DNA from: a virus
Lineage: Duplodnaviria; Caudoviricetes
DNA length: 55,670 nucleotides
Virus record (IMG/VR): IMGVR_UViG_3300001782_000010
Location: 1 to 55,670 of that record
Strand: one strand, 5' to 3'
Positions 7,699-30,261 of this stretch are shown here, piece after piece. Position 1 is the first letter of the stretch. Each line of letters opens with the position of its first letter. Under the pieces are notes generated by a model. The model was not told the DNA's origin. It did no database searches and was given only the letters and a program-made list of their open reading frames with translations. The position numbers and the translations under genes were made by a program.

Positions 7699-10635
7699 AT
7701 GCCGATAAGCAAGAAGTATTTAAAAGTTCTTAGATCAATGGTTTCTCAGTATTGTACATCTAAATATGGAGCAGATGGAAGAAGAGATAAATATGTACAG
7801 GGAATACATACATGTCCTAAAGCTAGACAGGTCTTTTATGCTAAAATGAGAAAAGAAGGGATAGATTATAGATTATCTGAATTATTAGAATTATTACATT
7901 CTAGAATTAAATGTTTTGAATGTAATCAACCTCCAACTATAGATGTCCTTTGGGCTGAAGGAATGGCTAGATGCTGGTTCTGTGATAAACATTTTGAAGA
8001 ATGGAAGAAAAAGAAATTTAAGATTAATGATCAAGTGGTAACTTATGGAAGTGAAATAAATAAAGTAAGAAAAGTTAAAGATGGAGAAGTACCTAAGAAA
8101 TGGTCAGACTGGTATAAATTATCTCTTGACACATTAGATATTGACCCTTTAAAGCCAAAGATATTTCCATCTAAAAAAATAGAAGAAATGAGTAATATAG
8201 AATTAGAATATGTACATGCATTAGTACATTCTATCAAACCTAAATTGTTTACTAAAGAATGTGGTTTACATTATAAAATAGTTAAAGAAATGACAAAAAG
8301 AAATTATTTACACATGTTTAAAGAAGGATATTTATGTGATAGAATAATTGAATGGGGAATTAAAGACTGGAAAACTTATAATCCTAAAAATATATCTGAT
8401 GCTGTTTTAAGAGATGATTGGAGAATAGTACATGCTTGGATGAAACTTGTCTGTCAAAAAGGAAAGAAATTAGAAAGTATACAATTTAAAGAATACTCTT
8501 TAGAACAACAGAAGAAAATAATAGGAGATTTAAGAGATAAAATAAGAAAGGAAATGATTGAAAGAGGATGGCAGCCTAAGAAATTATCTTTTAAACTTCC
8601 TTCTGGAATGAATATTGAAGATATTGATCCTCCATTTATTATGAATTTAAAAGATAAAGATCTTATTAGTTTATATAAATTTTTACATCAAGAATATAAG
8701 AAGCGAGGAAAAGTAACTGAAGATATATCTAATGCTAACATATTTATTGGTTTAGAACTTGTTAGAAGAAGACTTTATAATAAAAATAAAATTGATGACG
8801 ATCTTACAAAAGAGACTGAACTTGAAATAAGAGAATATCCAACACCAGAAGGATTCCCTAGGAAAGAACAGTCTTTAGAATGGAAAGAAATAGAGAAGAG
8901 AGGATATATTACTTTAGAAGATGTTCTTTCTGTTTTACCTGACCAGTTGATTATTAAAGGTACCGTTGAAAAACCAGTATCAATATATCTTATTGGAAGA
9001 ATTGTTAATGTTAAGAAAGTACCTTTAGATCATGATATAGACGTTCTTTTTAAAACAGAATTTATAGATCCTAAATTATTATATTCATTTTACGCTAGTA
9101 TACCAGTATGGTTATCTAAAATATTACATCCTGTTCCAGATATAAATGGACCAGAAATAGGTAATGCAATATTAATATATGAACCAGGAAATTATTTTTC
9201 ACATCCTAGCAGATTATCCTTTTCTATCAAAGTAGGAAGATCATTTGTTGGACTTAAAGCTAAATCAGGATTTCATAAATATGAGTTCTGGGATATTGAT
9301 GAAGCATATAAAAAAGCTGTTTCTCAGTATATTAGTAGAGGTCTAATTATAGATAAAAAATATGATGGTAGAAGATTTCAGATTCATTATGATAAAAGTG
9401 AAGGAATATTTAAAATTATTACTGAAGATCAACAGAGAGATAGAGCAGGAGCATTACCAAATATTTCTTCTGAGATAAAATCGTTTCTAGATAAGAAAGG
9501 AATTAAAAATGTTATATTAGATTCTGAAGCAGTAGCATATGATTGTACAGGAAAGAAAGTTAAAAATAAAGAAGACCTGTGTGATTTTATAGATAGAGAA
9601 AAAACAGCATGGTTAACTGTTGGAACGATTAGTTCAGAACAGGAAGAATCTGTTGTATTTCATGTACATGATATTTTATATTTAAATGATAAAACAGTCA
9701 ATGAATTGGGATATATAGATAGACAGAGATTATTTAGAAAATTAATAGGTGTAGGTACTCCTCATCTTCAGGTTGTTAAAAGTACAACTGCAGATAATGT
9801 TAAACAATTTATATCTGCTGTTAAAAGAATGAGATCCCTTCCTGGTTCAGAAGGTGTAATGATTAAAGTAAGTGACAGTAAATATAGAATAAAATATTCA
9901 GGAGAGAATAGAACATCTGAATGGATAAAAATCAAGAATCTTAAAGAAATAGATGTAATGGTATGGGAAAGAGTACCTATGAAGAGAAAAGAAACAGGTG
10001 AACCAACTGGAGCATTTAGGTATGAATCAGTATTTGAAATACCAAGTAATAAAAAAGGACAGTTTAGAGAAAGTGATATAGTTGAACATAAAGGAAAAAT
10101 ATATGCTAAAATAGGTCTAACATATGCTACTAATGATAGAAATAAAAGAGGAGATATTATAAGTGTTAGACAAATTAGGATTAGAAAAGATTATGATAAA
10201 AATAATAAAGTCTACTATACTTGGATGTTTCCTTTTTATGCTGGTAAAAGAACAGATAAGAAAGAACCTGATACTTTAACTACAGTAGATAGACTTGAAA
10301 GAATTGGTACTAAACCATTAGAAAGGAACAGTCTAGAAAGATGGTACAAAGATACTTTCAGAGAAGAACTAAAGTATAAAGAAATAATGGAAAGAATTAC
10401 TGATGAAAACATAGAAGATTATTTAGATTCAGATACCATAATTATATCTTTAAACAAATGTCCTTTCTATGATAAAACAAAAATATGTCCTTTCAGGGAA
10501 CGATTTAAAGGACCATATTTAACGAAAGTGTTAGAACAATACTTGGAATTTCCAATAAAATGTCATTTTGCTGATATGTTTATATGTAGATATGTCAAGA
10601 AATATTATTATCCATATAAAATAATAGAGATTTAA
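7699..10635 (+). CDS. Multidomain protein: zinc finger, helical repeats, Pol-beta-like nucleotidyltransferase-like domain and ATP-dependent DNA ligase
   Basis: Ligase motifs I KKYDGRR, III ILDSEAV, IIIa FHVHDILY, IV SEGVMIK and V WIKIK, followed by an OB-like region; NTase-like IYLIGRIV...HDIDVLF; CFEC/CWFC zinc finger. Confidence 0.85.
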   Translation: MPISKKYLKVLRSMVSQYCTSKYGADGRRDKYVQGIHTCPKARQVFYAKMRKEGIDYRLSELLELLHSRIKCFECNQPPTIDVLWAEGMARCWFCDKHFEEWKKKKFKINDQVVTYGSEINKVRKVKDGEVPKKWSDWYKLSLDTLDIDPLKPKIFPSKKIEEMSNIELEYVHALVHSIKPKLFTKECGLHYKIVKEMTKRNYLHMFKEGYLCDRIIEWGIKDWKTYNPKNISDAVLRDDWRIVHAWMKLVCQKGKKLESIQFKEYSLEQQKKIIGDLRDKIRKEMIERGWQPKKLSFKLPSGMNIEDIDPPFIMNLKDKDLISLYKFLHQEYKKRGKVTEDISNANIFIGLELVRRRLYNKNKIDDDLTKETELEIREYPTPEGFPRKEQSLEWKEIEKRGYITLEDVLSVLPDQLIIKGTVEKPVSIYLIGRIVNVKKVPLDHDIDVLFKTEFIDPKLLYSFYASIPVWLSKILHPVPDINGPEIGNAILIYEPGNYFSHPSRLSFSIKVGRSFVGLKAKSGFHKYEFWDIDEAYKKAVSQYISRGLIIDKKYDGRRFQIHYDKSEGIFKIITEDQQRDRAGALPNISSEIKSFLDKKGIKNVILDSEAVAYDCTGKKVKNKEDLCDFIDREKTAWLTVGTISSEQEESVVFHVHDILYLNDKTVNELGYIDRQRLFRKLIGVGTPHLQVVKSTTADNVKQFISAVKRMRSLPGSEGVMIKVSDSKYRIKYSGENRTSEWIKIKNLKEIDVMVWERVPMKRKETGEPTGAFRYESVFEIPSNKKGQFRESDIVEHKGKIYAKIGLTYATNDRNKRGDIISVRQIRIRKDYDKNNKVYYTWMFPFYAGKRTDKKEPDTLTTVDRLERIGTKPLERNSLERWYKDTFREELKYKEIMERITDENIEDYLDSDTIIISLNKCPFYDKTKICPFRERFKGPYLTKVLEQYLEFPIKCHFADMFICRYVKKYYYPYKIIEI

Positions 10636-10646
10636 GTTGATAAATA

Positions 10647-11339
10647 ATGTTACTAAAAAATAGTTACAATAAGTCAATATATATTATTAGAGAAGCTAGA
10701 ACAAGATTTACAAATTTAGCATTGATGTGGGGAGGAGGAAAAGATAGTACTTTAATGTTATATTTAACTAAAGAAGCTTTATATAATAATCTTCCATCAA
10801 TTATATTTCTTGATACTACATTTGCTTTTAGAGAAACTAAAGAATACATAAGAATTATATCTAAATTATGGAATTTTAATTTGATATATTTTCAGAATAG
10901 AGAAGCATTATCAAAAGGAATTAATCCTTGGAACTATTCTAAAATAGAATGTTGTACAAAATTAAAAACAGACGCTTTAAACCAATGTATACAAAAATAC
11001 AACTTTGATGGATTAATGTTTGGTATTAGATGGGATGAACATCCAATAAGGGGGAAAGAAAAATATTTTAGTTCTAGAGATGTTCCTTGTCATATGAGAG
11101 TACATCCAATATTACACTGGTCAGAAGAAGATGTCTGGAGATTTATAAAAAAATATAATATTCCTTATAATCCATTATATGATAGAATTATTAATGATAA
11201 AAAATATAAGTCTATAGGGTGTTATCCATGTACAAAACCTATTTCTCAAGAAGAATATTTAGAACTTGGAGAAAGAGGAGGAAGATCTTTAGATAAAGAA
11301 AAAATTATGGAGAGACTTCGTTCTCTAGGATATATGTGA
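10647..11339 (+). CDS. PAPS-reductase-family protein, CysD (sulfate adenylyltransferase small subunit)-like
   Basis: GGGKDS PP-loop, LDT, ECC, GIRWDE, RVHPILHW, SIGCYPCT and a C-terminal ERGGR...LGYM. Confidence 0.8.
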   Translation: MLLKNSYNKSIYIIREARTRFTNLALMWGGGKDSTLMLYLTKEALYNNLPSIIFLDTTFAFRETKEYIRIISKLWNFNLIYFQNREALSKGINPWNYSKIECCTKLKTDALNQCIQKYNFDGLMFGIRWDEHPIRGKEKYFSSRDVPCHMRVHPILHWSEEDVWRFIKKYNIPYNPLYDRIINDKKYKSIGCYPCTKPISQEEYLELGERGGRSLDKEKIMERLRSLGYM

Positions 11340-11340
11340 A

Positions 11341-11865
11341 ATGAAAATACATAATAAAATAAATCCTAGAAGTATATATACTTCTAAATATTTTGAAAAA
11401 GCTACTAAGACTTCTCATTTTGAATATATTAAATGGGCAATGTATCTGAAGAAATATCCAGATCCTATGTTAGAATTAGGATGTTATAAAGGAGAATTAG
11501 TTAAAGAATTACAATTAAGAAAAAAAGAAACATATGGTGTTGATTCTTCAAACTATGCTATTCAAAATATTATTTGCAAAGATATTCTTCAAGCTGATGC
11601 ACACTTTTTACCTTTTAAAAACAATTTTTTTGGTACAATATTCTCTTTTCAATTTTTAGAACATTTAAGTGTACCAGATATCTGCCTTAAAGATTGCTAC
11701 AGAATTTTAAGATCTGAAGGATATTTTCTAGCTAAATGGGGATGGGGACAAGATATTACTCATTTATCTGATCTTCGAGATGGATGGATAGGAAAACTTA
11801 AAAGATATTTTAAATATATTAAATATCATCAAGGTTTGTATGTCTTTCAGAAGGTAGACAAATGA
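11341..11865 (+). CDS. Class I SAM-dependent methyltransferase
   Basis: LELGCYKG, GVDSS, ADAHFLPF, FLEHL, RILRSEG. Confidence 0.85.
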   Translation: MKIHNKINPRSIYTSKYFEKATKTSHFEYIKWAMYLKKYPDPMLELGCYKGELVKELQLRKKETYGVDSSNYAIQNIICKDILQADAHFLPFKNNFFGTIFSFQFLEHLSVPDICLKDCYRILRSEGYFLAKWGWGQDITHLSDLRDGWIGKLKRYFKYIKYHQGLYVFQKVDK

Positions 11866-12851
11866 AGATATTAGTAACTGGTGGTGCAGGATTTATAGGT
11901 TCATATTTAACTGAATATCTATTAGGAAAAGGACATGAAGTAATAGTATGGGACGATTTAAGCACAGGAAGACAAGATAATTTAAAGAATGTTTATTCAA
12001 ATAAAAATTTACAGATGATAAAAGAAAATATTCTTAATTATTATACTCTAGAAAGTGGAAGTAAAGGCTGTGATATTATTTTTCATCTTGCTGCTCAATT
12101 AGAAATATTAGAAATGATGGATGATCCTTCTATAGATTTAACAGTTAATGGACAGGGAACATTGAATGTCTTAGAAGCTGCAAAAACAAATAAAGTTAAG
12201 AAAGTAGTATTTGCTAGTACATGTGGAGTATATGGAGAACCTAAATATATTCCTGTAGACGAAAAACATGTCCTTGAACCTCAGTGGCATTATGGAGCAT
12301 CAAAAATATTAGGAGAGAAATATTGTGGAGTTTATAGTAAATTATATAATATTCAGACAATTATTCTAAGATATGGTTATATTTATGGTCCAAGAGAATG
12401 GTTTGGAAGAGTTCATACCAGATTTATTAATAGAATACTAGATAATAAAAATCCTCTGGTATTTGTTCCAGGTACTCAAACTAGAGATTTCCTTAATGTT
12501 ATTGATTGTGCAAGAATAACAGCTGAACTAGGGTTAAGATGTATTCCGTCTTCTATTTTCAATGTAAGTTCAGGAAATAAAATAACTATTTCTAAACTAG
12601 CTAAATTATTAATAGAGATTTCAAATAAAGATCTAGAAATTAAAATGATAAATCCTGAACCTTACAAGATGGGAAGAAAACCATGTGAATTAAAACATGT
12701 ACAGTTAGATATTAACAAATTAAAACATTATATTGATGATCAAATTATTGATTTATATGACGGACTTGTTTCTGAATATGAATGGGCTAAAAAATATAGA
12801 CATATATATTGGAGAAATGCTGATGAGAAATATAATGATTTTATGTATTGA
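11862..12851 (+). CDS. NAD-dependent nucleotide-sugar epimerase/dehydratase (extended SDR)
   Basis: TGGAGFIG, HLAA, YGASK, TRDF. Confidence 0.92.
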   Translation: MKILVTGGAGFIGSYLTEYLLGKGHEVIVWDDLSTGRQDNLKNVYSNKNLQMIKENILNYYTLESGSKGCDIIFHLAAQLEILEMMDDPSIDLTVNGQGTLNVLEAAKTNKVKKVVFASTCGVYGEPKYIPVDEKHVLEPQWHYGASKILGEKYCGVYSKLYNIQTIILRYGYIYGPREWFGRVHTRFINRILDNKNPLVFVPGTQTRDFLNVIDCARITAELGLRCIPSSIFNVSSGNKITISKLAKLLIEISNKDLEIKMINPEPYKMGRKPCELKHVQLDINKLKHYIDDQIIDLYDGLVSEYEWAKKYRHIYWRNADEKYNDFMY

Positions 12852-13617
12852 TGGATTAGATCCAATTCTGGCTAGAGACTGTAAACTTGAATTTTTAAGA
12901 AGTATAGGAGATATTCAAGAAATAATAACTGGTAAAGATACTGGTGAAACTGTCTCTTATATATTCTCTGATAATATAGTTGATATGACTGAACATAGTA
13001 ACTATAACATTAAATCACATGAATTATTATGGAATAAAATTAATTGTAAATGGGGAATAGGAAATGTACCAACTATTCCAGTATTAAAAATATTTGGATG
13101 GTCTATTGTAGGATATTTTCGTCCTGGATCTTATCTTGCATATCCTTATTATATTGAAGATTATTTACGTTCAATAAATTATGAAGTTGATATACCAGTT
13201 AAAATAGGAGAATACTTGTTTTCACATTTACATTATCCTAGAATAATTAATAAAAGAACTAAAGCATTTAATTATTTATTAAAGGAATATCCTGTTGAAA
13301 TAGCATTTTTATGGTATAGATGTTTAGATGGAATTAATCATGAATATTGTATTGGTCCAGAAAAGAACATTGAAAAAATTTTAAAATGGTATGAAAGATT
13401 AGATTATGAAATATCAAAATTAAATACAAAGTTTGAAAAAATAATAATTTTTTCTGATCATGGTGTACCATCATATGCAGGTATATTTAAAAGATTAAAA
13501 GATAAACCTCATAGAGCAAAAGGAATATTTTTAAATAATATGAAATATAAAATAAAACATATTAGAGAACTTTATTACCTTATAGAAGAATTAGCTAAAG
13601 ATATTAAAGGAATTTAA
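12733..13617 (+). CDS. Alkaline phosphatase superfamily (nucleotide pyrophosphatase/sulfatase-like) protein; true start probably near 12817-12823
   Basis: ILCIDGLD, LDGINH, FSDHG, H-x-x-x-G-I-F. Confidence 0.75.
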   Translation: MMIKLLIYMTDLFLNMNGLKNIDIYIGEMLMRNIMILCIDGLDPILARDCKLEFLRSIGDIQEIITGKDTGETVSYIFSDNIVDMTEHSNYNIKSHELLWNKINCKWGIGNVPTIPVLKIFGWSIVGYFRPGSYLAYPYYIEDYLRSINYEVDIPVKIGEYLFSHLHYPRIINKRTKAFNYLLKEYPVEIAFLWYRCLDGINHEYCIGPEKNIEKILKWYERLDYEISKLNTKFEKIIIFSDHGVPSYAGIFKRLKDKPHRAKGIFLNNMKYKIKHIRELYYLIEELAKDIKGI

Positions 13618-13618
13618 A

Positions 13619-14572
13619 ATGAATATTGTATTTCTAGCTCTATATAATTCTGGAGGAATATTTGGTACTTTAACAAAGGCAATAAATAAATATACTGAAC
13701 ATCATGCAGATTTTATTTTAAAGAAAAGACATAGATATAAATTTGATTATGATATTTGTGAAACTGAAGGATACAAAAGAGAAGATGGAAACTCTTTTAA
13801 TAATGAAGATATTAAAAGAATATTGAATAATGCTGATGTAATTCATAGAAATATGTGTGCTGGTAGATTTTCTAGAATATTTGGAATAAATATAGAACCA
13901 TATTTCAATAATGTTAAAACTAGAGCCTTTCATTTTTCAGGATATGAACTTAGAAATCAGCCTGGAAGATGGGATCACTTGAAGGGAATAAAAATAGTAG
14001 ATAATTTGGATTTATTACAGTATATAAAGAATGGACACTGGCTTCCTAATCCAGTTCCTACTAATAATAAATTATATACTCCAGATCCTTTTAGATCCAT
14101 TTATACTTTAAGATTTTGTACTGATATTTCTGTACCTTCTAAATGGGGAGGACATAAAGGACTTAGCTTATATGCTGATATAATCAAAGACAAGATAAGA
14201 AAGTATAATAGTAAAGTTAGTTTAGACATTATTAATGAAGTAACTAGAAATGAATGTCTAGAAAGAAAAAGAAAATGTCATGTTTATGCAGGAGAATTAT
14301 TTTTACCTAATTATGAAAATTCAGTATTAGAATGTACTAGTCAGTCTTTAGTTATTATTAATAAACATATACTTCATCCTGAAATATATAATAATCCTCC
14401 ATTCATATTTATAGAAAAGAAAGATTTGGATAAAACAATAGAAAAGTTAATTAATACTCCAATGAAAGAAATATTTAATATAGGAAGAAAGACTAGAGAA
14501 TGGTGTGTATCATTTCATGATGATAAAATAGTAATTAAGAAATTAATATCGTTATATGAGGAATATAAATGA
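13619..14572 (+). CDS. Putative GT-B glycosyltransferase
   Basis: LPNPV, HKG, YENSVLEC and a C-terminal 'R..V..FH....V...L...Y' pattern of GT-B enzymes. Confidence 0.65.
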   Translation: MNIVFLALYNSGGIFGTLTKAINKYTEHHADFILKKRHRYKFDYDICETEGYKREDGNSFNNEDIKRILNNADVIHRNMCAGRFSRIFGINIEPYFNNVKTRAFHFSGYELRNQPGRWDHLKGIKIVDNLDLLQYIKNGHWLPNPVPTNNKLYTPDPFRSIYTLRFCTDISVPSKWGGHKGLSLYADIIKDKIRKYNSKVSLDIINEVTRNECLERKRKCHVYAGELFLPNYENSVLECTSQSLVIINKHILHPEIYNNPPFIFIEKKDLDKTIEKLINTPMKEIFNIGRKTREWCVSFHDDKIVIKKLISLYEEYK

Positions 14573-14814
14573 AAATAAAAGTTAAAAAACATTTTAGAAA
14601 TAATACAGAAGGATATGAATATTGGGAATATGATCATTTAAATAAAAAATGTACAAAGTGTTGTTTCTGTGGACTAGATAAAGGAGATAGAAAATTATTG
14701 TTATATCATGCTTGTACAGGAGAAGAAGAACATGCTGTTCAATGTCCTGAAATGTCTACATGTTTTGGAATGTTAGTTAAGAAAAGAACAAGTGAGATAA
14801 AAAATGATAAGTAA
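14569..14814 (+). CDS. Small cysteine-rich protein
   Basis: CTKCCFC plus three further Cys; overlaps both neighbours. Confidence 0.5.
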   Translation: MKIKVKKHFRNNTEGYEYWEYDHLNKKCTKCCFCGLDKGDRKLLLYHACTGEEEHAVQCPEMSTCFGMLVKKRTSEIKNDK

Positions 14815-15805
14815 CAAATATTCATATACCGCTGCTGGGATATTTCCTGCTAAATTATTAATACATCAAAAATTAAATGATTATACTAGAAAGTTTGGAA
14901 AAATATTTCCTATCCATATTCAATTAAATCCAACCAATAGATGTAATTTTAACTGTTTCTTCTGTTCTTGTGCAGGAAGAAAAAGAAATATAGAATTATC
15001 ATATAATGAAATTTATGATATTATGACCAAGTCAAAACAAGTTGGAGCAGAATCTGTAACTATCACAGGTGGAGGAGAACCTTTGATGCACAGAAAAATT
15101 CAAGAGATTATTCTTTCAATTGACCTTTTAGGAATTCAAATTGGTTTAGTTACAAATGGGACTTTATTAAAAAATCTTTCAACAGAAACTTTAGATAAAA
15201 TAGTCTGGTGTAGAATATCTTCTGGAGATAATGTGGAATATAGTAAATATGGAATGGGAAATGAAAAGTATAGAGATATGTTGGAAGAAATAGTTAATAG
15301 ATCTAATAAAACTGATTGGGCATTTAGTCATGTTCTATCTAGAGATCCAAATTATTATACTTTAGAACATGTTGTTAAATTTGCTAATAAACATAATTTT
15401 ACTCATGTAAGAATAGTGTCTGATCTTTTAGATCTAAAATATGTACCTAACATGAAAATTATAAAAGAACATTTAAGAAAAAGAAATATTGATGATAGTA
15501 AAGTCTTTTATCAAGGAAGAAAAGATTTTACTAGAGGAAAAAATCCTTGTTATATAAGTATTCTAAAACCAATAGTAGGAGCAGATGGTTGGATATATCC
15601 TTGTTGTGGTACACAATATGCTCTTAAAAATCCTTCAAAAGATTATGAATTTAGTATGAGGATGTGTAAAGCTACTGAAATTGATAAATTATATGAAGAA
15701 CAGAAATTTTTTGATGGTTCAGTTTGTGCAAGATGTTATTATCAGAACTATAACTGGGCTTTAGGTGTAATGTTATCTAAAATAGATCATGAGAAATTTG
15801 TATGA
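14804..15805 (+). CDS. Radical SAM protein with SPASM/Twitch-like C-terminus
   Basis: CNFNCFFC (CxxxCxxC), TGGGEP, VTNG, DGWIYPCC, CARC. Confidence 0.9.
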   Translation: MISNKYSYTAAGIFPAKLLIHQKLNDYTRKFGKIFPIHIQLNPTNRCNFNCFFCSCAGRKRNIELSYNEIYDIMTKSKQVGAESVTITGGGEPLMHRKIQEIILSIDLLGIQIGLVTNGTLLKNLSTETLDKIVWCRISSGDNVEYSKYGMGNEKYRDMLEEIVNRSNKTDWAFSHVLSRDPNYYTLEHVVKFANKHNFTHVRIVSDLLDLKYVPNMKIIKEHLRKRNIDDSKVFYQGRKDFTRGKNPCYISILKPIVGADGWIYPCCGTQYALKNPSKDYEFSMRMCKATEIDKLYEEQKFFDGSVCARCYYQNYNWALGVMLSKIDHEKFV

Positions 15806-16668: not shown

Positions 16669-17099
16669 AAATAAATCTCGGATCAGGAAAAGATTATAGA
16701 AATGGGTTTGTTAATATAGAGAAAAATACTTTACTTAAAGCAGATATTCATTTAGATCTAGAAAAAGATAGATTACCTTTTAAAGATAGTTCGGTTGATT
16801 TTATTTTAATTAAACATACTCTGGAACATATTACTAATATTGTACATTTATTGAATGAATGTCATAGAATATTAAAGAAAGATGGAAATATACATATTGA
16901 AGTACCAAATGTAGCACACCCACAAGGAATTATAAGTGCATTTGGAGATATTTTTCATGTAAGATGTTTTAGTCCTTTTACTTTTACTATGCTTGGAGGA
17001 AGTTCAGACGATTACAGATTTAACAATCTTAAACCTTGGAATTTAATCAAATTAAGTTCTAATAGAGATATTATAGCTATTTTATCTCCTAGGAAATGA
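16665..17099 (+). CDS. SAM-dependent methyltransferase (type 11-like)
   Basis: INLGSG, LPFKDSSVD, HTLEH, ECHRILKKDG. Confidence 0.85.
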   Translation: MKINLGSGKDYRNGFVNIEKNTLLKADIHLDLEKDRLPFKDSSVDFILIKHTLEHITNIVHLLNECHRILKKDGNIHIEVPNVAHPQGIISAFGDIFHVRCFSPFTFTMLGGSSDDYRFNNLKPWNLIKLSSNRDIIAILSPRK

Positions 17100-17103
17100 T
17101 GAT

Positions 17104-18579: not shown

Positions 18580-18580
18580 A

Positions 18581-19159: not shown

Positions 19160-19162
19160 AAT

Positions 19163-22392: not shown

Positions 22393-22398
22393 GAGGTT

Positions 22399-23085
22399 AT
22401 GATATTGGTAGTCTTAGTTGATCTACAGGTAAATACTGGAACTAATGCTTCACCTTCATGGTCTACTATTACAGCTAGTGAAAAATTAGTTTTTACAACA
22501 AGTGATATGACTGATTCTACTACAGATGCTAATATTCCATTTATTACTAAACCTGCTTCTGGAACAACTACAGCTGAACGATTATATTGGGGTACTTCAG
22601 GAGAATATACATGTATAATAACATATCATGGACATGGTACTGGAATGGACAGACCTAATGATAATGAAAATGTTATTAGATGGTCATGGGATGCTGCAAT
22701 GAATAGTGCTCCAGAATTTACTGCATGTTTAGATACTGTGACACATTCAGCTGCAACAGCTGGTAATGAAACTCTTCTAGGAGGAACAACTAATGAGACA
22801 GTTGATAAATCACATCTTAAAGCAGTAATATGTGATGGAAGCTTATCAGCTTCATGGTGTACTGCTGGAACAGGATCTATAGGAGAAGTAACAACTACAA
22901 ATACTGGGCAGTCATTAAATGGTTTCTATTCTGAAGATAATTCTAATGGACAAACATTGAAGAAAGATGGTATTCCTTCAGGAGCAGATAATGAACCACT
23001 AGCTCTATGTATGTTTGTATCCGCTTCATTGACAGAAACTGGTACTGTAGATTTCTATCTATCCTGTAAATTTACATATACATAA
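22399..23085 (+). CDS. Ser/Thr/Gly-rich putative minor virion protein
   Basis: Acidic, T/S/G-rich beta-like composition; strong GGAGG SD; C-terminal aromatic (FTYT). Confidence 0.5.
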   Translation: MILVVLVDLQVNTGTNASPSWSTITASEKLVFTTSDMTDSTTDANIPFITKPASGTTTAERLYWGTSGEYTCIITYHGHGTGMDRPNDNENVIRWSWDAAMNSAPEFTACLDTVTHSAATAGNETLLGGTTNETVDKSHLKAVICDGSLSASWCTAGTGSIGEVTTTNTGQSLNGFYSEDNSNGQTLKKDGIPSGADNEPLALCMFVSASLTETGTVDFYLSCKFTYT

Positions 23086-23148
23086 GAGATATAGTCAGAA
23101 CATCTGACCTTTATCTCTTCAACTGGTCCAAGGAGGATACAGAGTTGA
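23085..23148 (+). other. Two adjacent intergenic stem-loops
   Basis: AGAGATA..GTCAGA-ACA-TCTGAC..TATCTCT, then TCAACT...AGTTGA, followed by a T-rich tract. Confidence 0.5.
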
Positions 23149-23175
23149 GATCAAAACATTTTTATTTTGTAGGAG

Positions 23176-23622
23176 TTGATTAAAATATCTTATTTTATAG
23201 CCCATCTAGACAATGGAAAAAGTATTTCAGAACAAAAGATGTTAAATATTATTGATCCTAAATATAGGAGATCAGTATGGGATTTTATGAGAGATAATGG
23301 ATATTTAGAAAAAATATCTTCTCTAGAACTTAAACTTCCATATGGAGACTTGGTAAATATTCCTAGGAAAGAACCACACTGGAAATTCTTCCAGTTTAAA
23401 TATGCTCAGTCTGCTCCACAGAAAGGATATAGTCACAAAAGACTTGCTCAGATAATTGGTGCAGTTTATAATAATAAAGGAGATTGTATTATAGTATGTT
23501 ATTTATCTGATAGTCCAGATGTTATAGTAACAATAGATAATATTATAAATTTAAGATTGTTTAGAATAGGAGCTATTAATTTAAAGTTACATAATATAGA
23601 ATTGAAGGAGATACCTATATGA
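23176..23622 (+). CDS. Hypothetical protein
   Basis: ORF with AGGAG SD and TTG start. Confidence 0.5.
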   Translation: MIKISYFIAHLDNGKSISEQKMLNIIDPKYRRSVWDFMRDNGYLEKISSLELKLPYGDLVNIPRKEPHWKFFQFKYAQSAPQKGYSHKRLAQIIGAVYNNKGDCIIVCYLSDSPDVIVTIDNIINLRLFRIGAINLKLHNIELKEIPI

Positions 23623-23987
23623 TCTCTTTCAAATGTCAAAGATGTGGATGGTGCTGTAAAAATAAAGCTATAAATATTTTATATTCTGATATTAAACGAT
23701 GGGAAAAAGAAGATAGAAAAGATATTTTAAAAGAAGTAAGTTTTGTAGAAGTAAAGAATCCTAAAATATCAGGATTTTATTTTGTTAAAACAAGTATTCC
23801 AAATCATGATAAATGTCCTTTTTTAACTTTTAAAAATGATTTAGCTATATGTTCTATATATGAAACTAGACCTAAAAGTTGTAGGAATAATCCAGAAATT
23901 ATTCCTAAGGAATTATATAAGAAATGGTTAGGATGCCCTGCATTCAGGGAGGTGTACAGGGATTGGATAAAAGAACAATTGAATTAA
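23619..23987 (+). CDS. YkgJ-family (CxxCxxCC) cysteine-cluster protein
   Basis: FKCQRCGWCC, CPFL, CSIYETRPKSCR. Confidence 0.85.
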   Translation: MISFKCQRCGWCCKNKAINILYSDIKRWEKEDRKDILKEVSFVEVKNPKISGFYFVKTSIPNHDKCPFLTFKNDLAICSIYETRPKSCRNNPEIIPKELYKKWLGCPAFREVYRDWIKEQLN

Positions 23988-26797
23988 GGAAAGATGAACA
24001 AGAAGATACTCTCCTAGCTATTTTACATAAAGACGAACTTTTACAGATTATTACTAATGCTAGAAAAAATATAAGTCTAAATTTAGATCCTGAAACAACT
24101 CTAGAAAGTGATAGTGAAGACATTGGTAATTGGACAGGTTCTGGTGATTCTCCTTATCTGCAATACGATGATAATAATTATATTTATTCTGATGCTAAGA
24201 AAGATACTACAAATAATGTTACATTTGAAAATCTTCCAGGAAATGCAGAATCTATTAATACAGTAGTTCTAAAAATAGAAACATATCTTGTTGGTAACGC
24301 TAAAAGTGGTCTAGTATATTACTGGGATAATGATGGAAGTACTGAAAGAAGTGCTGACTTAAACTTTCCTCGAGATACATGGGGAGAACAATCAATTGAT
24401 ATTACTTTAGATATAGGTACTGTTTCTGATGTTAATGCTTTATATGTGAGATTAGAATCACCTAATTTAACGAATGAATCTAGAATAGATTATGTCAAAG
24501 TACTTGTAAATTATAATGAAACTGCAGCAGTTACTACATCTTTTGAAGATATTCCTGCAACTATTAAAATTGAAATATTAGATTATAAAAACATCTTATC
24601 AAGAATCAGAACAGAAACAAAAGATTATAAAAATATAATTTCTAGATTAAGAGTTCAATTAAAAGAATTTAAAAATATTCTGTTTTCAATTAATGTTCAA
24701 ACTGAAGAGTTTAAAAATTACTTATTAAAACTTAGAGTTCATACTTTAGAATATAAAAATATTCTAACAAGTATTAAAATATATACAATTCAATACAAAG
24801 ATATTTTTTCTAGAATAAGACTGATTTCAATCAAATATAAGAGTATACAAGTTAGACTTAGAATAGGTTTTACAACTTATAAAAATATACCGATAATAAT
24901 TAAATTAGAAACTTCAAATTATAAAAATATAACAATAAGGATTAAAACTAGAGTTGAACAATTTAAAGATCTCATAATTAGAATTAGAACTTGTGTTAAA
25001 CTATATAAGAATCTTTTATTAAGAATACGAATACAGAATTTAATTTATAAAGATATAATTTTTCAAATTAAAATACAATATAAAATCTATAAAGATATTC
25101 TTGGAACTTTAAAACTTGAAGATTTACTTTATAAAGATATTTTAACAAGATTAAGAATTGTAACCACTTCTTATATATATATTTTAAATAGAATTAAAAT
25201 CCAGACTTTGGAATATTCTAATATATTAATTCAAATTAGAACACAGTATGAAAATTACAAAAATATTCTATCTAGAATTAGAACTATAACTTTAGAATAT
25301 TCAGATTATATAATACGAATTGAAATTCATTATTTAATATTTAAAGACATTACTTCAAAAATAAAATTAGCTGGAACAGGGTTCAAAGATATTGTACTAA
25401 GAATTAAATTTGTGGAAGAATATTTTAGAGATTTACCTTCTCTAATAAGAATAAAAATAATAGAATATAAAAATATCATATTTAAAATATATATACATTT
25501 AACTTTATATAAAGATATTTTAAATCAGATAAAACTAGAGACTTTAGTATATTTAAATAAAATAGTAAGAATAAGAACTCATATTGAAACATACAAAGAT
25601 ATTTTAATCATAATAGAAACTGCTTATAAAAATTATTCTGATATTATCTCTAGAGTAAGATTTGCACAGACAGAATTTAAAGATATTAATATTATGATTA
25701 AATTCTTTTCAGGAAATTACAAGGACGTTCTTGTAAAGATTAGAACTAAGATAATAGTTTATAAAAACTATATATTTAGAATTAAAATTCATAACTTAAA
25801 ATATTCTGACTATTTAATGAGAATTAGAAGTCAATATAAATTTTATGCTGATAAACTTATAAAAATAAAGAACCAATCTCAAGGAATTAAAGATATTCCA
25901 ATTAGAGTTCGTACAATGGTTTCAGGATATTATAAATACTATCATATTATAGTTAAATTCTTACAGAATTATTATAGAGATAGACATTCAATAATTAAAC
26001 TTGCCTATATTTCTTATAAAAACATTCTTTCAAAAATAAAAGTTTCTGTTAAGACAACTTCAGATTATTTGATTAGAATTCGTTCAATTAGTCTATTTGA
26101 TATTTTGGATCAACACTGGGACAGTCTTACAGACTGGATTAAAAGTGGAGATGGAACATCTGAGATATACCCTCCTTCACAATTACATCAGAAACCAGAA
26201 TCATACTCATATGTTAAAAGATCTTATGATATTTCAGAAGGATTTACAACTAAAATTTACACAGTATATTTCTCAGTAAAAGCAGAATCATGGGGTGATT
26301 ATATATCTCATGATTTCTTTGATGGTATTCATTGGATCAGTTTTAGAATAAAATCTGATAGAATAGAATTAAGAAATGAATTTGGAACATATTCTTATTA
26401 TACTTTAAGTACTGATACTAACTTTCATACTTGGGAATTACAAGTTAACAGTTTAGAACCTTTTGTTAAAGTCTATAGAGATAATATATTCATTACTAAA
26501 TTTACTTCATTATATGATTATACACAACTTGAAGGAAGAGTAGAAGTTTACTTATATAGATTTACTGATGGAGAAATGTACGAGGATTATCTGAGAATAA
26601 AATCTGGGATAATTCAGTTCTTTAAAGATGTACAAGTAAGAACTGGTTTTAGAGATTACTGGTTGTATTCTTATGCAACTGTTAGAATTAGAACTACAGA
26701 TTTTAGAAGACCAGTTGTAATATCTAAACTAGAACTCTTAAGAAGATATATTAAATTAATACCTATGAAGAAAAATATATCTATTGAAATGTATTGA
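23924..26797 (+). CDS. Fibre-like protein with ~37 tandem 14-aa repeats (start probably TTG at 23963)
   Basis: Repeat consensus (Y/F)K(D/N)I-x-x-(R/K)I(R/K)-x5; globular N- and C-terminal domains; GGAGGTG precedes TTG at 23963. Confidence 0.65.
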   Translation: MVRMPCIQGGVQGLDKRTIELRKDEQEDTLLAILHKDELLQIITNARKNISLNLDPETTLESDSEDIGNWTGSGDSPYLQYDDNNYIYSDAKKDTTNNVTFENLPGNAESINTVVLKIETYLVGNAKSGLVYYWDNDGSTERSADLNFPRDTWGEQSIDITLDIGTVSDVNALYVRLESPNLTNESRIDYVKVLVNYNETAAVTTSFEDIPATIKIEILDYKNILSRIRTETKDYKNIISRLRVQLKEFKNILFSINVQTEEFKNYLLKLRVHTLEYKNILTSIKIYTIQYKDIFSRIRLISIKYKSIQVRLRIGFTTYKNIPIIIKLETSNYKNITIRIKTRVEQFKDLIIRIRTCVKLYKNLLLRIRIQNLIYKDIIFQIKIQYKIYKDILGTLKLEDLLYKDILTRLRIVTTSYIYILNRIKIQTLEYSNILIQIRTQYENYKNILSRIRTITLEYSDYIIRIEIHYLIFKDITSKIKLAGTGFKDIVLRIKFVEEYFRDLPSLIRIKIIEYKNIIFKIYIHLTLYKDILNQIKLETLVYLNKIVRIRTHIETYKDILIIIETAYKNYSDIISRVRFAQTEFKDINIMIKFFSGNYKDVLVKIRTKIIVYKNYIFRIKIHNLKYSDYLMRIRSQYKFYADKLIKIKNQSQGIKDIPIRVRTMVSGYYKYYHIIVKFLQNYYRDRHSIIKLAYISYKNILSKIKVSVKTTSDYLIRIRSISLFDILDQHWDSLTDWIKSGDGTSEIYPPSQLHQKPESYSYVKRSYDISEGFTTKIYTVYFSVKAESWGDYISHDFFDGIHWISFRIKSDRIELRNEFGTYSYYTLSTDTNFHTWELQVNSLEPFVKVYRDNIFITKFTSLYDYTQLEGRVEVYLYRFTDGEMYEDYLRIKSGIIQFFKDVQVRTGFRDYWLYSYATVRIRTTDFRRPVVISKLELLRRYIKLIPMKKNISIEMY
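24542..26098 (+). repeat. Coding tandem repeat, 14 aa (42 nt) period
   Basis: YKNILSRIRTETKD YKNIISRLRVQLKE FKNILFSINVQTEE ...; about 37 units counted by eye. Confidence 0.9.
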
Positions 26798-26865
26798 AAT
26801 GTTCAAAATGAAATTAGTAATGTATATTAATATCATATAACATTTATAAAGAGGAGGAACAGATC

Positions 26866-27162: not shown

Positions 27163-30100
27163 ATGAAAATATATCTTTATATGATAAATACTTCACTACT
27201 TTCTAAAAGATATCAAGCTGAATTAGACTGGTTCTCTGCATATCCTTCAAAAGAATGTTCTAGAAAATTTGTATTACAAAAACATAAAATAGGAAAAAGT
27301 ATTTCAGATGAAGATCCGATAATTATTAAAAGAAATAATAAAATAGAAGTAATACCCATTAGACAATTATTGCCTTACAAGTTAAGAACAAGATCTGATA
27401 TTTACGAATATAAAATAGAAGGAATAAAGACTTGGACTAGAGGTGGATGGAAAGATATTAAATGGTTAATGAGACATAAACATAATGGTTTATTTAGAGT
27501 ACAATGCCCTTCTGGTTTAATTAATATTACAGAAGATCATTGTTTATTTAATGATACCAAACCAATTAAAATATCTGAATTTAAAGAAAATCAAAATATA
27601 GAACTTTGTAATTTACCAGTTATAAATGGTAATATTCATGTAGATCAGGAAATTGCATGGTTATTTGGATATTATTTAGCTGAAGGATCTAAACATGGAA
27701 AATATGCTGTAATATCACAAAATAATAAAAATGTTCTAGAAAAGATTGGAAAGATAATTTCTAAATATGGAGGAAAATATTTTATTTCAGGAAATAATGT
27801 GGAATTTTCTGGATTTAATATATGGAATGAATTTTATATTCCTAGCCCTCATAAACGAAGACAATCTAATGATAAAATAGTACCTTCATTTGTATTTCAA
27901 TGGGATAACAATTCAAAACAAGAATTCTTAAGAGGTTATCTAGAAGGAGATGGAGATGGTAATCTGAATTTTTCTACTTCTTCATTAGCTTTAGCTCAAG
28001 GTATAATTTTATTAATTTATTCTTTATATCCAAATAAAGATTTTACAATTATATGGGATAATTTAATTAGAATTAAAACAATAGATCCAATACATAACAG
28101 AACAGAATATCCTAGAGGAAGAATAAAAAATATTAAGAGAAGTTTAGCTTCAGATGCTGATGGTAAGAAAAATCCTAATTATAAATATGGAAAATATAGA
28201 TTCAAGAAATATAAAGAGAATAAATATATTTATTCTAACAAAAGATGGGTATATGATATAGAAACGGAAGATCATTCGTTTATGGCTGGAGTAGGAAGAA
28301 TATTAGCTCATAATTCACAACATGGAGATCTTAGACTTGAAAAATGTGATTTCCTAGAGGGATCATCTATAGTTGGATTTTCTGAAGATAAACAATTTAA
28401 TGCTGACACTCTTCTTAGCAATAGAGGAAGAGGATTTAGAGCTGAAACAAAATGTATTCAAGAATATTGTAATGAATGGAAATATAATATTGAAGAAAGA
28501 AATGGAGAATTTTATGCTGTTCCAATAAATATTGAAGAATTAAATTTTAAAGATATAGAGGAATTAGCAAGGCAGCCAAAGATATGGTTAAAAGTAAAAG
28601 GAGAAATAAAACCAGGAGAAGTAGGAGGAGGAGTAGAAGCACCAGGATACATGGAAATAATAGATTCTGGAACATATTGGGAAGGAGCAATTAAACCTTG
28701 GTTTAAAGAATTCTTTCTTAATGGGAAGACTTTGAAGAATTATGTTAGAATTATTATTAGAGCTATTAAAGTAAGAAAGATAGATCCTAAAACTAAGAAA
28801 CCAACTGGTAGATATGAAAGAATGTGGAGAATAATGGCACCAATAGATCAGACTCCATACGCTATTAAAAGAGGTAGAAAGAAAGGATGGGTCCCTCCAA
28901 AAGGAACTATTCCAATACCTCCTAATTGGAGGAAAGAAAATAAAGATAAATATGAAGAATGGTTACAATGGATTAAAGAGAAATGGTCAGAAAGACAGTC
29001 TTTATCTAAAGATGTACCTTTTACTTTAGCTTTACATAGATATAGAGGTCCAATTCATGTAAGAGGAAATTGGATAATAGATTTTTATTTATTATTTGAT
29101 GATAAAAGAACTGGATCTGTTAAAACATTTAAAATAGAAGGAGATCCAACTAGGAACAAATCTATATTGGCTTGGAAATGGAAAAAGACTTCTAGAAAAT
29201 TTCTAGATTATGAAGGAGAAACAAGACCAGGAAGTACTTTTAATCCTACAAAAGAAGTTAAAGGGGAATACATTATTATAGATAAAGGAAAAGTAAATAT
29301 TGAATTAAAGAAAGAAGAAACTGGAAATATCATTGATCTACAATTTAAAGGTAAGGAATTAAAAGGTAAATGGAAATTAAGTCAAGAAGAACCTGGATCA
29401 GAATCTTATGCTTTTGAAAAATTACATGTTGAAAAGTTAGTTCCATACAAATTTGTTTTACATAAACATGTTTTAGATTCTAAAGTACATTTCGATCTAA
29501 GATGGAAAACATCTGAAATTACAAAAGAAGAATTAAATTTATATTATAATCCTTTAGAAACAAAAGATAAAATTAAAGCATTTTATAAAAGTATAAAAGA
29601 ATCTAAAGATAAAGTTGATTACTGGATGATTGATAAAGGTACTAATATTAAAAGAAAGGTAGGTAATAAAGAAACTACAATTGACGTACTTGATTCAGGT
29701 ACATTAGAAGTTATAGAACATAATCCACAATTTTTATCTTTTAATATACTTGGAAAGAAATTGAAAGATCTTTGGGTAGCTAAGAAAAGTAACGGATTGT
29801 GGTACTTCTGGAAAACAAGTAAACCTAAAGAACCAAGAGAATTAGCTGGTGCAGGAGATCCTAAAACAGGAGATTATTATAAACCTTTTATTATAGAAGA
29901 AAAGAAAGGATGGGATCATTTTAATATAAAAATATATGATATAAGAGATTTTACTAGATGTGAAGGAGAAGAAAAAGTTAAACTTTATTTTAAAGATATT
30001 AATATTCCAAGTGGAGTAAATATTGGTGTTTGTTTATATCCTGTAATTGGAAAAGTACATCATGTAAGAGTAGCATTTGTTCAATTTAATAATAAAACAT

Positions 30101-30261
30101 GGAATTATGAAAAAGCTAAAAGTTGGATTAAAAGTAAAAAATTACATTTATTTGAAAGAGAACAGATTAGAAAAAGAATTGAAGAAGATATAGAAGAAGA
30201 GAAATATATATTAAGTAATAAATCTAGAACTAAAGAAGAGGGAGAATGTTGTCAGGAATAG
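27163..30261 (+). CDS. Intein-containing protein with three LigD 3'-phosphoesterase (PE)-like domains
   Basis: After splicing: FVLQKHKIGK|SQHGDLRLE (cf. LigD PE FVxQKH...HYDFRLE). A third copy reads FVLHKHVLDSKVHFDLRW. Each copy has an I-I-D-x-G motif and a GKxLK motif. Overlaps the prohead protease gene. Confidence 0.75.
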   Translation: MKIYLYMINTSLLSKRYQAELDWFSAYPSKECSRKFVLQKHKIGKSISDEDPIIIKRNNKIEVIPIRQLLPYKLRTRSDIYEYKIEGIKTWTRGGWKDIKWLMRHKHNGLFRVQCPSGLINITEDHCLFNDTKPIKISEFKENQNIELCNLPVINGNIHVDQEIAWLFGYYLAEGSKHGKYAVISQNNKNVLEKIGKIISKYGGKYFISGNNVEFSGFNIWNEFYIPSPHKRRQSNDKIVPSFVFQWDNNSKQEFLRGYLEGDGDGNLNFSTSSLALAQGIILLIYSLYPNKDFTIIWDNLIRIKTIDPIHNRTEYPRGRIKNIKRSLASDADGKKNPNYKYGKYRFKKYKENKYIYSNKRWVYDIETEDHSFMAGVGRILAHNSQHGDLRLEKCDFLEGSSIVGFSEDKQFNADTLLSNRGRGFRAETKCIQEYCNEWKYNIEERNGEFYAVPINIEELNFKDIEELARQPKIWLKVKGEIKPGEVGGGVEAPGYMEIIDSGTYWEGAIKPWFKEFFLNGKTLKNYVRIIIRAIKVRKIDPKTKKPTGRYERMWRIMAPIDQTPYAIKRGRKKGWVPPKGTIPIPPNWRKENKDKYEEWLQWIKEKWSERQSLSKDVPFTLALHRYRGPIHVRGNWIIDFYLLFDDKRTGSVKTFKIEGDPTRNKSILAWKWKKTSRKFLDYEGETRPGSTFNPTKEVKGEYIIIDKGKVNIELKKEETGNIIDLQFKGKELKGKWKLSQEEPGSESYAFEKLHVEKLVPYKFVLHKHVLDSKVHFDLRWKTSEITKEELNLYYNPLETKDKIKAFYKSIKESKDKVDYWMIDKGTNIKRKVGNKETTIDVLDSGTLEVIEHNPQFLSFNILGKKLKDLWVAKKSNGLWYFWKTSKPKEPRELAGAGDPKTGDYYKPFIIEEKKGWDHFNIKIYDIRDFTRCEGEEKVKLYFKDINIPSGVNIGVCLYPVIGKVHHVRVAFVQFNNKTWNYEKAKSWIKSKKLHLFEREQIRKRIEEDIEEEKYILSNKSRTKEEGECCQE
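27298..28314 (+). mobile_element. Intein with LAGLIDADG homing endonuclease (339 aa, Ser-initiated)
   Basis: Block A SISDEDPI, block B ITEDH, LAGLIDADG blocks LFGYYLAEG and FLRGYLEGDG, block F VYDIETEDHSF, terminal HN followed by +1 Ser. Confidence 0.92.

Follow-up and report, generated by a model that had tools for sequence, protein, structure and literature searches.

A DNA ligase and a triple phosphoesterase protein in the head-gene block of an uncultured tailed virus: possible halves of a 3'-end-cleaning and nick-sealing module

Cleaning of a 3' end followed by sealing is the logic of the bacterial LigD and of the stand-alone archaeal phosphoesterases (PEs) of known structure, namely PaePE (PDB code 3n9b), CkoPE (3p4h), MbaPE (3p43) and the Methanocella PE (5dmp). 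In CkoPE, the residues His9, His15, Asp17 and Arg19 bind Mn and phosphate, and mutagenesis found each of them to be essential, as reported in PMC3082917. In the present paper we describe a viral locus that shares this logic and that combines an ATP-dependent ligase with the same barrel-fold 3'-phosphoesterase and its identical His/His/Asp Mn site and Arg. The locus lies in the IMG/VR record IMGVR_UViG_3300001782_000010, a whole virus entry of 55,670 bases, of linear class and with an estimated completeness of about 51%, all of which was analysed and is called the window below. Two of its genes encode a ligase protein (LIG) and a protein with three PE domains (PE3), and we hold with about even confidence that these are the two halves of a viral machine that cleans 3' ends and seals nicks, that is part of the head-gene block and that is probably loaded into the capsid.

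The module resembles the PE and ligase part of LigD, with a different nucleotidyltransferase (NTase), and it is not LigD. Of the 'LigD-like' kit that an original prediction had read from this DNA, the ligase–PE pair has stood, whereas a full LigD has not, there being no AEP-type (archaeo-eukaryotic primase) polymerase, no Ku and no conserved phosphate-binding His. The same prediction had seen no Ku or primase-type polymerase, and our searches agree: PF02735 gave 0 matches over the entire record, with control genomes behaving as expected, and Pfam scans covering 52 open reading frames (ORFs) of the window turned up no AEP or primase-polymerase family, both results referring to a record that is about 51% complete. 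Where LigD has its AEP-type polymerase, the window has a minimal Pol-beta-type NTase-like domain. In contrast with the solved PEs, the window family has three tandem PE domains, of which one is degenerate, and apparently an invariant Lys...Trp in place of the phosphate-binding His and Tyr; and unlike LigD, the viral module is encoded among head genes and, in relatives, is joined to the capsid protease.

A second likeness is to the polyvalent head-packaged proteins (Iyer et al. 2017, PMC5512222; Iyer et al. 2022, PMC9503650), which are multi-domain enzymes encoded beside portal and head genes with peptidase fusions in relatives, and whose packaging and co-injection with the DNA were inferred from fusion to a capsid-processing serine peptidase, as described in PMC9503650. 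Their Dam methylase partner recurs in the ligase–PE family. The peptidase fusion itself is seen in relatives of the window (loci L027 and L026, protein P0056 and 6 of 32 picked long proteins), but not in the window's split genes, where the module is divided into separate genes and no MuF domain was detected, and the role proposed here would be the mending of the virus's own DNA and not an attack on the host. A term search of PMC5512222 gave no occurrence of 'LigD' and three of 'ligase', the mention displayed being of RNA ligases.

The third comparison is with the magroviruses, of which groups A and B carry in their structural module an ATP-dependent DNA ligase with no function assigned, described as a second and 'unexpected' ligase (Philosof et al. 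2017, PMC5434244). The likeness lies in the structural-module ligase and in a LAGLIDADG element, which in the window is an intein within PE3; it is a likeness of description, and the available portions of that paper mention no phosphoesterase, NTase domain or protease fusion. This remark is the only precedent found, as a full-text literature search, supplementary files aside, returned no published description of a ligase–PE head module, and one Asgard-virus preprint lists a 'ligD' ligase among replication genes.

Domain composition of PE3 and LIG

PE3 (P0001; 1032 aa) is encoded at positions 27163-30261 on the + strand and comprises PE domains 1, 2 and 3, followed by a C-terminal domain and then by a tail rich in charge. 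On its own P0001 scored 26.0 bits with the Pfam model LigD_N, under the cut-off of 31.1, so that the claim of PE identity needed relatives. A search with the part of PE3 that follows its intein gave 37 proteins including the query, mostly of 620-790 aa, and 25 intein-free homologues, only about 35-58% identical in sequence, were aligned (alignment A1). The A1 profile matched archaeal PE structures across the entire domain 3 (3p43, E 2e-10; 3p4h, E 2.1e-10) and, at the N-terminal catalytic motif of domain 1, gave weak matches to 3p43, 5dmp and 3n9b. An AlphaFold model was made of P0005, a naturally occurring homologue that has no intein and shares 58% identity with P0001 (mean pLDDT 81.9), and in a Foldseek search of the PDB the five top entries, with E <= 1e-3 and probability 1.00, were all LigD-PE structures. 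With VIA-align, domain 3 (model residues 425-547) superposed on 3p4h with Z 16.2 and a root-mean-square deviation (rmsd) of 2.2 Å over 116 of 118 residues, and domain 2 (residues 281-420) on 3p43 with Z 15.7 and 2.2 Å over 120 of 124 residues, the next unrelated match standing at Z 4.1. By hhalign, domain 2 matched domain 3 at 97.4% (E 1.5e-11) and domain 1 matched domain 3 with 86% probability (E 4.9e-6). Domains 2 and 3 of the P0005 model thus have the eight-stranded beta-barrel PE fold of PF13298 by structure, and domain 1, which the structure search left unresolved, is assigned from its catalytic motif and the profile-profile match. The triple-PE protein and the match to the LigD PE fold that had been predicted are borne out to this extent, but domain 2 does not retain the catalytic residues.

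The Mn triad and Arg of the LigD 3'-phosphoesterase superfamily (PF13298) were present in domain 3 of 25 of the 25 homologues and in domain 1 of 24. Domain 3 (aa 759-888; 29437-29826, + strand) has the PE fold in full together with the His/His/Asp/Arg set, its motif in the window reading 'HKH...VHFDLRW' (aa 764-781), and H433, H442, D444, R446, K476 and W483 were found in 25/25. Domain 1 is formed by aa 36-45 joined to the C-extein part (aa 385-566; 28315-28860, + strand), and its motif in the window, built from both pieces, is H41 ... H387-x-D389-x-R391; the H/H/D/R set is missing only from P0009, which seems to begin inside an intein, and E93, K95, Q136 and W140 (P0005 numbering) are present in all 25. 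Domain 2 (aa 618-758; 29014-29436, + strand) has the PE fold with its metal-binding residues gone, the catalytic columns being variable and the Mn-binding His/His/Asp and the Arg absent, and is probably non-catalytic. To judge from these residues, two of the three PE domains (1 and 3) look catalytic.

Domains 1 and 3 both show a Lys and a Trp that do not vary among the homologues. In domain 3 the Lys (K476) stands three columns upstream of the column of CkoPE His51 and the Trp (W483) falls under Tyr55, in an alignment that may be offset, and the Lys may or may not replace His51. As the His51 column is not conserved and the Lys and Trp are invariant, domains 1 and 3 form a distinct PE subfamily of putative enzymes, in which the active site is of a Lys/Trp type.

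The C-terminal domain of PE3 (aa 894-1006, about 110 aa; 29842-30180, + strand) is conserved in alignments A1 and A5 and gave no structural or profile match; the possibility that it is a hidden protease or XkdF relative was rejected (hhalign probability <= 0.3%). The C-terminal part of PE3 also gave no tblastn match among 50,697 phage and virus records, neither PE3 nor LIG matched a PHROGs family, and the BFVD viral structures gave one credible local match to the P0005 model, the unnamed A0A516LT18 (probability 1.00), the others being noise.

The first active site of PE3 is split by an intein of 339 aa (aa 46-384; 27298-28314, + strand) that carries a LAGLIDADG homing endonuclease and lies inside PE domain 1, between its two Mn-binding histidines. 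Neither this intein nor the roughly 16.5 kb of unrelated genes that separate LIG and PE3 had been part of the original prediction. The insert has Ser46 as its first residue, His383-Asn384 as its last and Ser385 at +1; it matches LAGLIDADG_3 in Pfam and resembles the PI-PkoII intein 2cw7, including the terminal block (E 2.5e-06); and P0005 and other intein-free homologues are continuous across the site. All of the features expected of an intein (terminal residues, endonuclease and continuous intein-free homologues) are therefore present. Inteins favour conserved functional sites. They are also common elsewhere in the gene block, being found within ligase genes, at different sites of PE genes and within one portal gene (examples are L005 2-4786, L014 1239-5966, L021 1040-6340 and L027 2301-4568, and P0020, P0045 and P0049), the portal gene, from L027, combining Phage_portal, Intein_splicing and LAGLIDADG matches. 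The separate LAGLIDADG endonuclease gene reported in magrovirus structural modules may, by analogy, represent such inteins.

LIG (P0002; 978 aa) is encoded at positions 7699-10635 on the + strand and consists of a Cys-rich N-terminus, a helical region, an NTase-like domain, an ATP-dependent ligase (adenylation domain and likely OB, i.e. oligonucleotide-binding, region) and a four-Cys C-terminal module. The Pfam model PF01068 (DNA_ligase_A_M) matched aa 536-746 with E 2.9e-26 and 92.9 bits, against a cut-off of 26.2. The adenylation (nucleotidyltransferase) domain occupies 9304-9936 (+ strand), with the motif I lysine, K554, encoded at 9358-9360. Among 14 aligned homologues, K554/D556/G557 (the KxDG of motif I), D658, S717-E718-G719 and K744/K746 were invariant, so that the residues of motifs I, III, IV and V expected of the adenylation domain of an ATP-dependent DNA ligase are all in place; the four Cys of the C-terminal module (C921, C930, C955 and C963) were conserved in the same homologues. 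No Pfam model of a ligase OB domain matched LIG. Residues 750-860 are conserved and end in a near-invariant K854...D858 stretch, which we take to be motif VI-like, and an OB region is likely to be present behind the adenylation domain.

The ligase had been predicted to be fused to an NTase-like domain, and of this the ligase, with its PF01068 match and intact motifs, is firm and the NTase is plausible, on three weak but concordant structural matches and a G...DxD motif. This minimal Pol-beta-type domain (about aa 395-500; 8881-9198, + strand) has G433, N437 and D448 invariant and D446 near-invariant in the LIG alignment, and a third carboxylate may be supplied by D327 (A3 numbering), which is conserved. 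Residues 155-535 of LIG were modelled (pLDDT 73.8), and the model matched the HI0073 minimal NTase 1no5_B by VIA-align with Z 6.9 and rmsd 3.1 Å over 85 aligned residues, which is within the noise of the list, and the minimal NTase 2rff by Foldseek with a probability of 0.72. In addition, 7 of the 10 structural neighbour clusters of the ESM Atlas model of LIG were named NTP_transf_2/Polbeta, with TM 0.55-0.56 to those of 106-112 aa. The Foldseek search of the N-terminal part against the PDB returned nothing at E <= 1e-3, its profile gave nothing below E 0.2 against solved structures, no Pfam match of the PF01909/PF18765 type was obtained for the domain, and an ESM Atlas search by features with aa 155-535 gave no usable match. 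From the model, a Pol-beta-type NTase domain at aa 395-500 is probable but unproven. The helical region ahead of it gave no reliable match; a T4 endonuclease V-like (Pyr_excise) domain was considered there after P0047 had scored 24.1 bits with a cut-off of 23 and P0040 had given E 0.0059, but it was dropped to the rank of a lead, since no more than 2 of 15 members of alignment A3 reached E <= 0.1.

Linkage of LIG and PE3 to each other and to the head genes

We compared the window's ORFs by blastp with those of 30 related loci, 27 from IMG/VR and three from prokaryote genome contigs, of which 28 have upstream sequence and two begin inside PE3. The ligase was in the same ORF as PE3 in five of the 28 loci, directly upstream of it in 21 (the two genes sharing 1-38 nt or standing up to 482 nt apart) and upstream with inserted ORFs in two, i.e. 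it was fused to or directly upstream of PE3 in 26 of the 28 informative loci. One fused protein, P0019 (1608 aa), is collinear with LIG and then PE3, with 40% identity to LIG over 827 aa (E 1e-156) and 39% identity to PE3 over 626 aa (E 1e-124), and PE3 is found at the C-terminus of 4 of the 14 aligned ligase homologues. Given this adjacency and fusion, LIG and PE3 appear to be one module, and gene order and fusions support a functional pair for end-healing and sealing. The window, with about 16.5 kb between the two genes, is the unusual case.

Gene identities in the window were taken from Pfam and PHROG scans of its ORFs. The upstream edge of the head block is a portal-like protein of 459 aa (2851-4230, + strand; phrog_9232 portal protein, E 2.6e-14), homologues of which are found upstream of the ligase in L010, L011, L019 and L023, and the downstream edge is the major capsid protein of 355 aa (31995-33062, + strand; PF25209, E 4.7e-08; phrog_1357, E 6.8e-12). 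Both LIG and PE3 lie between these genes, as had been predicted, and their coordinates and identities were also given correctly. In full, the gene order is portal-like, ribonucleotide reductase, LIG, accessory island, Ig (immunoglobulin)-like protein, PE3, protease-scaffold, major capsid protein, tail genes and terminase, and relatives keep the succession portal ... ligase, PE, protease-scaffold, capsid protein; in them the capsid gene is usually the next after the protease-scaffold gene. This conservation, together with the fusions below, upholds the placing of the kit in the head module, and LIG and PE3 are on these grounds supported as members of the head-gene block.

The gene next to PE3 encodes a protease-scaffold protein (P0003; 475 aa; 30246-31673, + strand) with a prohead protease-like domain (aa about 45-190) followed by an acidic scaffold-like tail. 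Its start overlaps the stop of PE3 by 16 nt, confirming that the PE gene overlaps a prohead protease-like gene, as predicted, and its ATG start is preceded by a Shine-Dalgarno-like site, GAGGGAG. A -1 frameshift fusing PE3 to the protease within the overlap was considered and rejected, there being no slippery heptamer and an ordinary Shine-Dalgarno-like site with ATG. In 15 homologues H99 and S149 are invariant, and 'Head maturation protease' PHROGs matched 8 and 7 of the 15 members (best E 5.5e-05). Comparison with XkdF protease domains by hhalign gave E 5e-4 and a probability of 31% with the His and Ser in register; P0003 itself had no Pfam match, and the protease profile gave none below E 0.2 against solved structures. 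Complex prediction from alignments for the PE3 C-terminal domain (143 aa) and protease-scaffold (475 aa) scored 0.00, which is not evidence either way. The scaffold tails of relatives (L002, L006, L010, L012, L019, L023 and L025; alignment A6) contain C2H2 zinc fingers and Tyr/Pro/Gly-rich stretches of the type 'YYYGYP..YPYP', both unusual for scaffolding proteins, and the tail in the window is acidic with one short CxxC-type motif.

A survey of how ligase and PE domains co-occur with prohead proteases had been suggested along with the prediction, and the loci and proteins covered here agree with such a linkage. A protease-scaffold homologue was found on the same strand downstream of PE3 in 27 of the 28 loci having downstream sequence, fused to it in one, within 850 nt in 16 (two of which overlap by 16-17 nt) and at 2-8 kb with inserted genes in 10; in L014 no such gene was found within 10 kb downstream of PE3. 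In L027 a single ORF of 1464 aa encodes ligase (PF01068, E 6e-19), PE domains and a protease domain, the C-terminal domain being 27% identical to aa 45-186 of the window protease (E 1e-12) with its His, Ser and 'NPAC' motifs aligned; no separate protease gene was found in this locus, which has the intein-bearing portal gene upstream. The PE protein of L026 ends in an XkdF-type protease (E 6.9e-33), P0056 has the composition Dam-ligase-XkdF and P0175 is a Dam-PE-PAPS_reduct-ligase-XkdF polyprotein. The order of LIG, PE3 and protease genes in the window is the order of the domains in the protease-fused polyproteins.

These fused proteins belong to a far wider set. The PE3 profile, searched against 1.84 billion representative proteins, matched 1186 at E <= 1e-3; the stricter limits of 1e-10 and 1e-30 left 797 and 395. 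Among 150 matches listed, we picked by length the 32 longest-looking multidomain proteins, a non-random sample, and found PF01068 in 31, an XkdF-type Peptidase_S78_2 domain at the end of six, a metallo-beta-lactamase (MBL)-fold domain in seven, Dam methylase in four, uracil-DNA glycosylase (UDG) in one and a PAPS-reductase domain in one. MBL-fold domains were also present in 5 of 11 scanned ligase homologues. The polyproteins with MBL or UDG domains include P0155, P0129, P0172, P0184, P0185, P0149, P0154 and P0062, and an MBL nuclease-like domain is also found in the metagenome-assembled genome (MAG) contig L029 (4341-9983). Such partners hint at a base-excision-like repair set. By these profile searches the PE family is a large (at least 1186 clusters at 50% identity), almost unannotated and modular class of virus proteins.

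Function, capsid loading and competing explanations

In the mechanism that we propose, PE domains 1 and 3 would remove 3'-phosphate, 3'-ribonucleotide or similar blocking groups in an Mn-dependent manner, domain 2, as a non-catalytic copy, may hold the DNA, a nucleotide may be added by LIG's NTase-like domain of the Pol-beta type, and the ATP-dependent ligase of LIG would close the nick. The module would be made together with the head proteins, taken into the procapsid beside the protease-scaffold, and would repair damaged-end nicks in the viral genome during packaging or just after delivery, ahead of viral gene expression. The original prediction had named breaks made by restriction or CRISPR nucleases as a substrate. 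Restriction enzymes typically leave 3'-OH/5'-P ends, which need no PE, and 3'-phosphate, 3'-ribonucleotide or damaged nick ends would be a better fit to PE chemistry than such breaks.

Entry of the module into the procapsid seems probable because relatives covalently fuse ligase–PE to a prohead protease, and as this protease acts inside the procapsid, fused partners would be carried in with it. In the L027-type viruses the ligase–PE is, from its fusion, likely to be loaded into the capsid. For the separate LIG and PE3 of the window, where capsid loading would be extrapolated from these relatives, the chances appear evenly balanced.

Several observations weigh against our interpretation. No capsid-targeting signal was found on the window's separate LIG, PE3 and protease-scaffold proteins, and the Pfam and PHROG scans of the window detected neither a MuF nor a portal-fusion domain. 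The distance from LIG to PE3 is 16.5 kb, and their co-expression in this genome is assumed. In domains 1 and 3 the column that falls under CkoPE His51, an essential residue that binds phosphate, shows no conservation, and the phosphoesterase activity of PE3 could therefore be altered or lost; the structure model is that of the homologue P0005 and not of the window's PE3 itself, and the NTase assignment relies on weak matches (Z 6.9, within noise). Finally, the family is known from genes alone, the sole GenBank virus record with this ligase type being that of the uncultured ANMV-1.

The same heal-and-seal chemistry might also operate unpackaged, as a late cytoplasmic cleaning and sealing of nicks and gaps in replicated concatemeric DNA before packaging, with the late-operon position setting the timing. 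The conserved head-block position and the translational coupling to the protease gene suit co-expression no less than co-assembly, no targeting signal was found on the window's proteins, which are separate, and unsealed nicks in T4 DNA are known to impair packaging. However, the ligase–PE proteins fused to prohead protease in L027, in L026, in 6 of the 32 picked proteins and in P0056 would enter procapsids, which is difficult to square with a purely cytoplasmic role in those relatives. We regard this, the main rival explanation, as unlikely, if still worth serious consideration.

Alternatively, LIG might be an ordinary Okazaki-joining replication ligase that stands among head genes by chance, and PE3 a domesticated PE that serves the head structurally or by binding DNA, and not as an enzyme. 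Replication ligases are encoded by many large viruses, one PE domain (domain 2) is degenerate, conservation fails at the equivalent of His51, and the second, structural-module ligase of magroviruses has no stated function in the available parts of PMC5434244. Against this stand the strict adjacency or fusion of ligase and PE in 26 of 28 loci, the presence of ligase in 31 of the 32 picked long PE-family proteins, an intein in the active site of domain 1 and an Mn triad and Arg that are invariant in domain 3 and kept in 24 of 25 homologues in domain 1 at only about 35-58% identity. We consider this explanation improbable.

The module could, in principle, be an RNA repair kit, rejoining for example tRNA cut by host anticodon nucleases, with the PE opening 2',3'-cyclic or 3'-phosphate ends, the NTase rebuilding 3' ends and the ligase joining RNA; a probable Pol-beta NTase domain is present, PE enzymes act on ribonucleotide 3' ends according to PMC3082917, and PF09414 (RNA_ligase) matched some homologues (P0019, 1.4e-06; P0049; P0054). 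This seems very improbable, since the window ligase matched the DNA ligase model only (92.9 bits, with no RNA_ligase at E <= 0.01), no polynucleotide kinase was found in Pfam scans of the window, and the domains to which relatives have it fused (Dam methylase, UDG, MBL nuclease-like) act on DNA. In addition, phage RNA repair genes are not known to be located in head modules.

Neighbouring genes and the wider family

The window has a GC content of about 28%, and its + strand holds nearly all genes as far as about 51.5 kb. Directly behind the portal-like gene is that of the ribonucleotide reductase large subunit (4280-6022, + strand; PF02867, E 2.2e-140), one more metabolic gene within the structural region. 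After the major capsid gene come the tail genes, among which are an HNH-endonuclease-like ORF (35793-36254; phrog_5046, E 2.3e-4) and a very long tape measure protein (2406 aa; 36788-44008), and the terminase is encoded on the - strand (51504-52805). A promoter and terminator scan of 6000-12000 was indistinguishable from shuffled sequence and was set aside.

LIG and PE3 are separated by an accessory island of about 16.5 kb (10647-26797, + strand), composed by Pfam mostly of glycan and methyltransferase genes, and by a 98-aa Ig-like protein that lies between the island and PE3. The first island gene, 12 nt after LIG, encodes a PAPS-reductase-like protein (10647-11339, + strand; PF01507, E 4.3e-40), which is possibly an accessory of the ligase–PE kit and not of the glycan island, because the same domain sits within the P0175 polyprotein (1 of 32 scanned). 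From 10647 to 22392 the run contains this gene, at least five methyltransferase-like ORFs, an NAD epimerase/dehydratase, a phosphodiesterase, a radical SAM protein and six glycosyltransferase-like ORFs, one of them Anp1-like, and could represent a pathway for virion or host-surface glycans; a CxxCxxCC protein is also found in the island. Towards its end, where GC falls to the window's minimum (22%), is P0004 (23924-26797), a protein of 957 aa. Most of it is taken up by degenerate repeats, each about 17 aa long ('..YKNI..RIR..'), and its N- and C-terminal parts are distinct. P0004 had no Pfam or PHROG family, and a tandem-repeat finder gave no DNA-level repeats; it is possibly a head fibre or decoration protein.

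Relatives have surface-type genes inserted at comparable positions, encoding proteins with Ig-like, LamG, Kelch and DUF2341 domains and a glycosyltransferase. The gaps between PE3 and protease or between LIG and PE3 contain DUF2341 proteins of about 2000 aa and LamG, Kelch, Ig-like (ASH/MG4) and Anp1 glycosyltransferase genes (L003 10485-16935, L013 13487-19513, L014 11017-18648, L016 12455-18963, L011 7943-9013 and L018 7534-8568). As relatives have cargo other than the window's in the equivalent place, the region is, on this comparison, a variable slot or hot spot for surface-type accessory genes, comparable to the island of the window.

The three relatives on prokaryote contigs all fell into archaeal bins (MAGs of Thermoprotei, Archaeoglobales and Geothermarchaeota), two of which bear sample labels in the Guaymas style, and the host is likely to be archaeal. 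Among the 50,697 GenBank phage and virus records, one, the uncultured archaeal virus ANMV-1, has the LIG type of ligase; tblastn against the same records gave no match for TerL and one weak match for the capsid protein. The ANMV-1 protein AJP62006.1 (L032; KP703175.1, 3200-5800) aligns with P0151, a member of the family, over both its ligase and its PE parts (query 349-1114, 29.7% identity, E 4e-75) and also matches P0002 (E 5e-16). It differs in being annotated as 'ATP-dependent DNA ligase' only and in being a distant match (25-30% identity) whose displayed neighbours are mostly hypothetical proteins, and its annotation probably misses the PE domains.

Viruses are usually assumed to mend their DNA with host enzymes or with enzymes made after infection. 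Taking the class of at least 1186 clusters as a whole, it is a tentative reading, which we rate at rather less than even, that these proteins are DNA first-aid kits of archaeal and bacterial tailed viruses, loaded into the capsid through linkage to the maturation protease, in which a ligase, possibly pre-charged with AMP, 3'-end cleaners and a small nucleotidyltransferase, often with a nuclease, glycosylase or Dam methylase alongside, would repair nicks and damaged ends present in virion DNA or arising from entry before viral expression, and of which the window would be the split-gene form. If this is true, a particle-borne repair kit would be a new kind of virion cargo, and it could explain infectivity despite DNA decay in hot or long-residence habitats. 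It would also give a first function to the structural-module ligase of the abundant ocean magroviruses, and the family would offer natural variants for enzymology, with Lys/Trp PE active sites and ligases that may be single-turnover and pre-adenylated.

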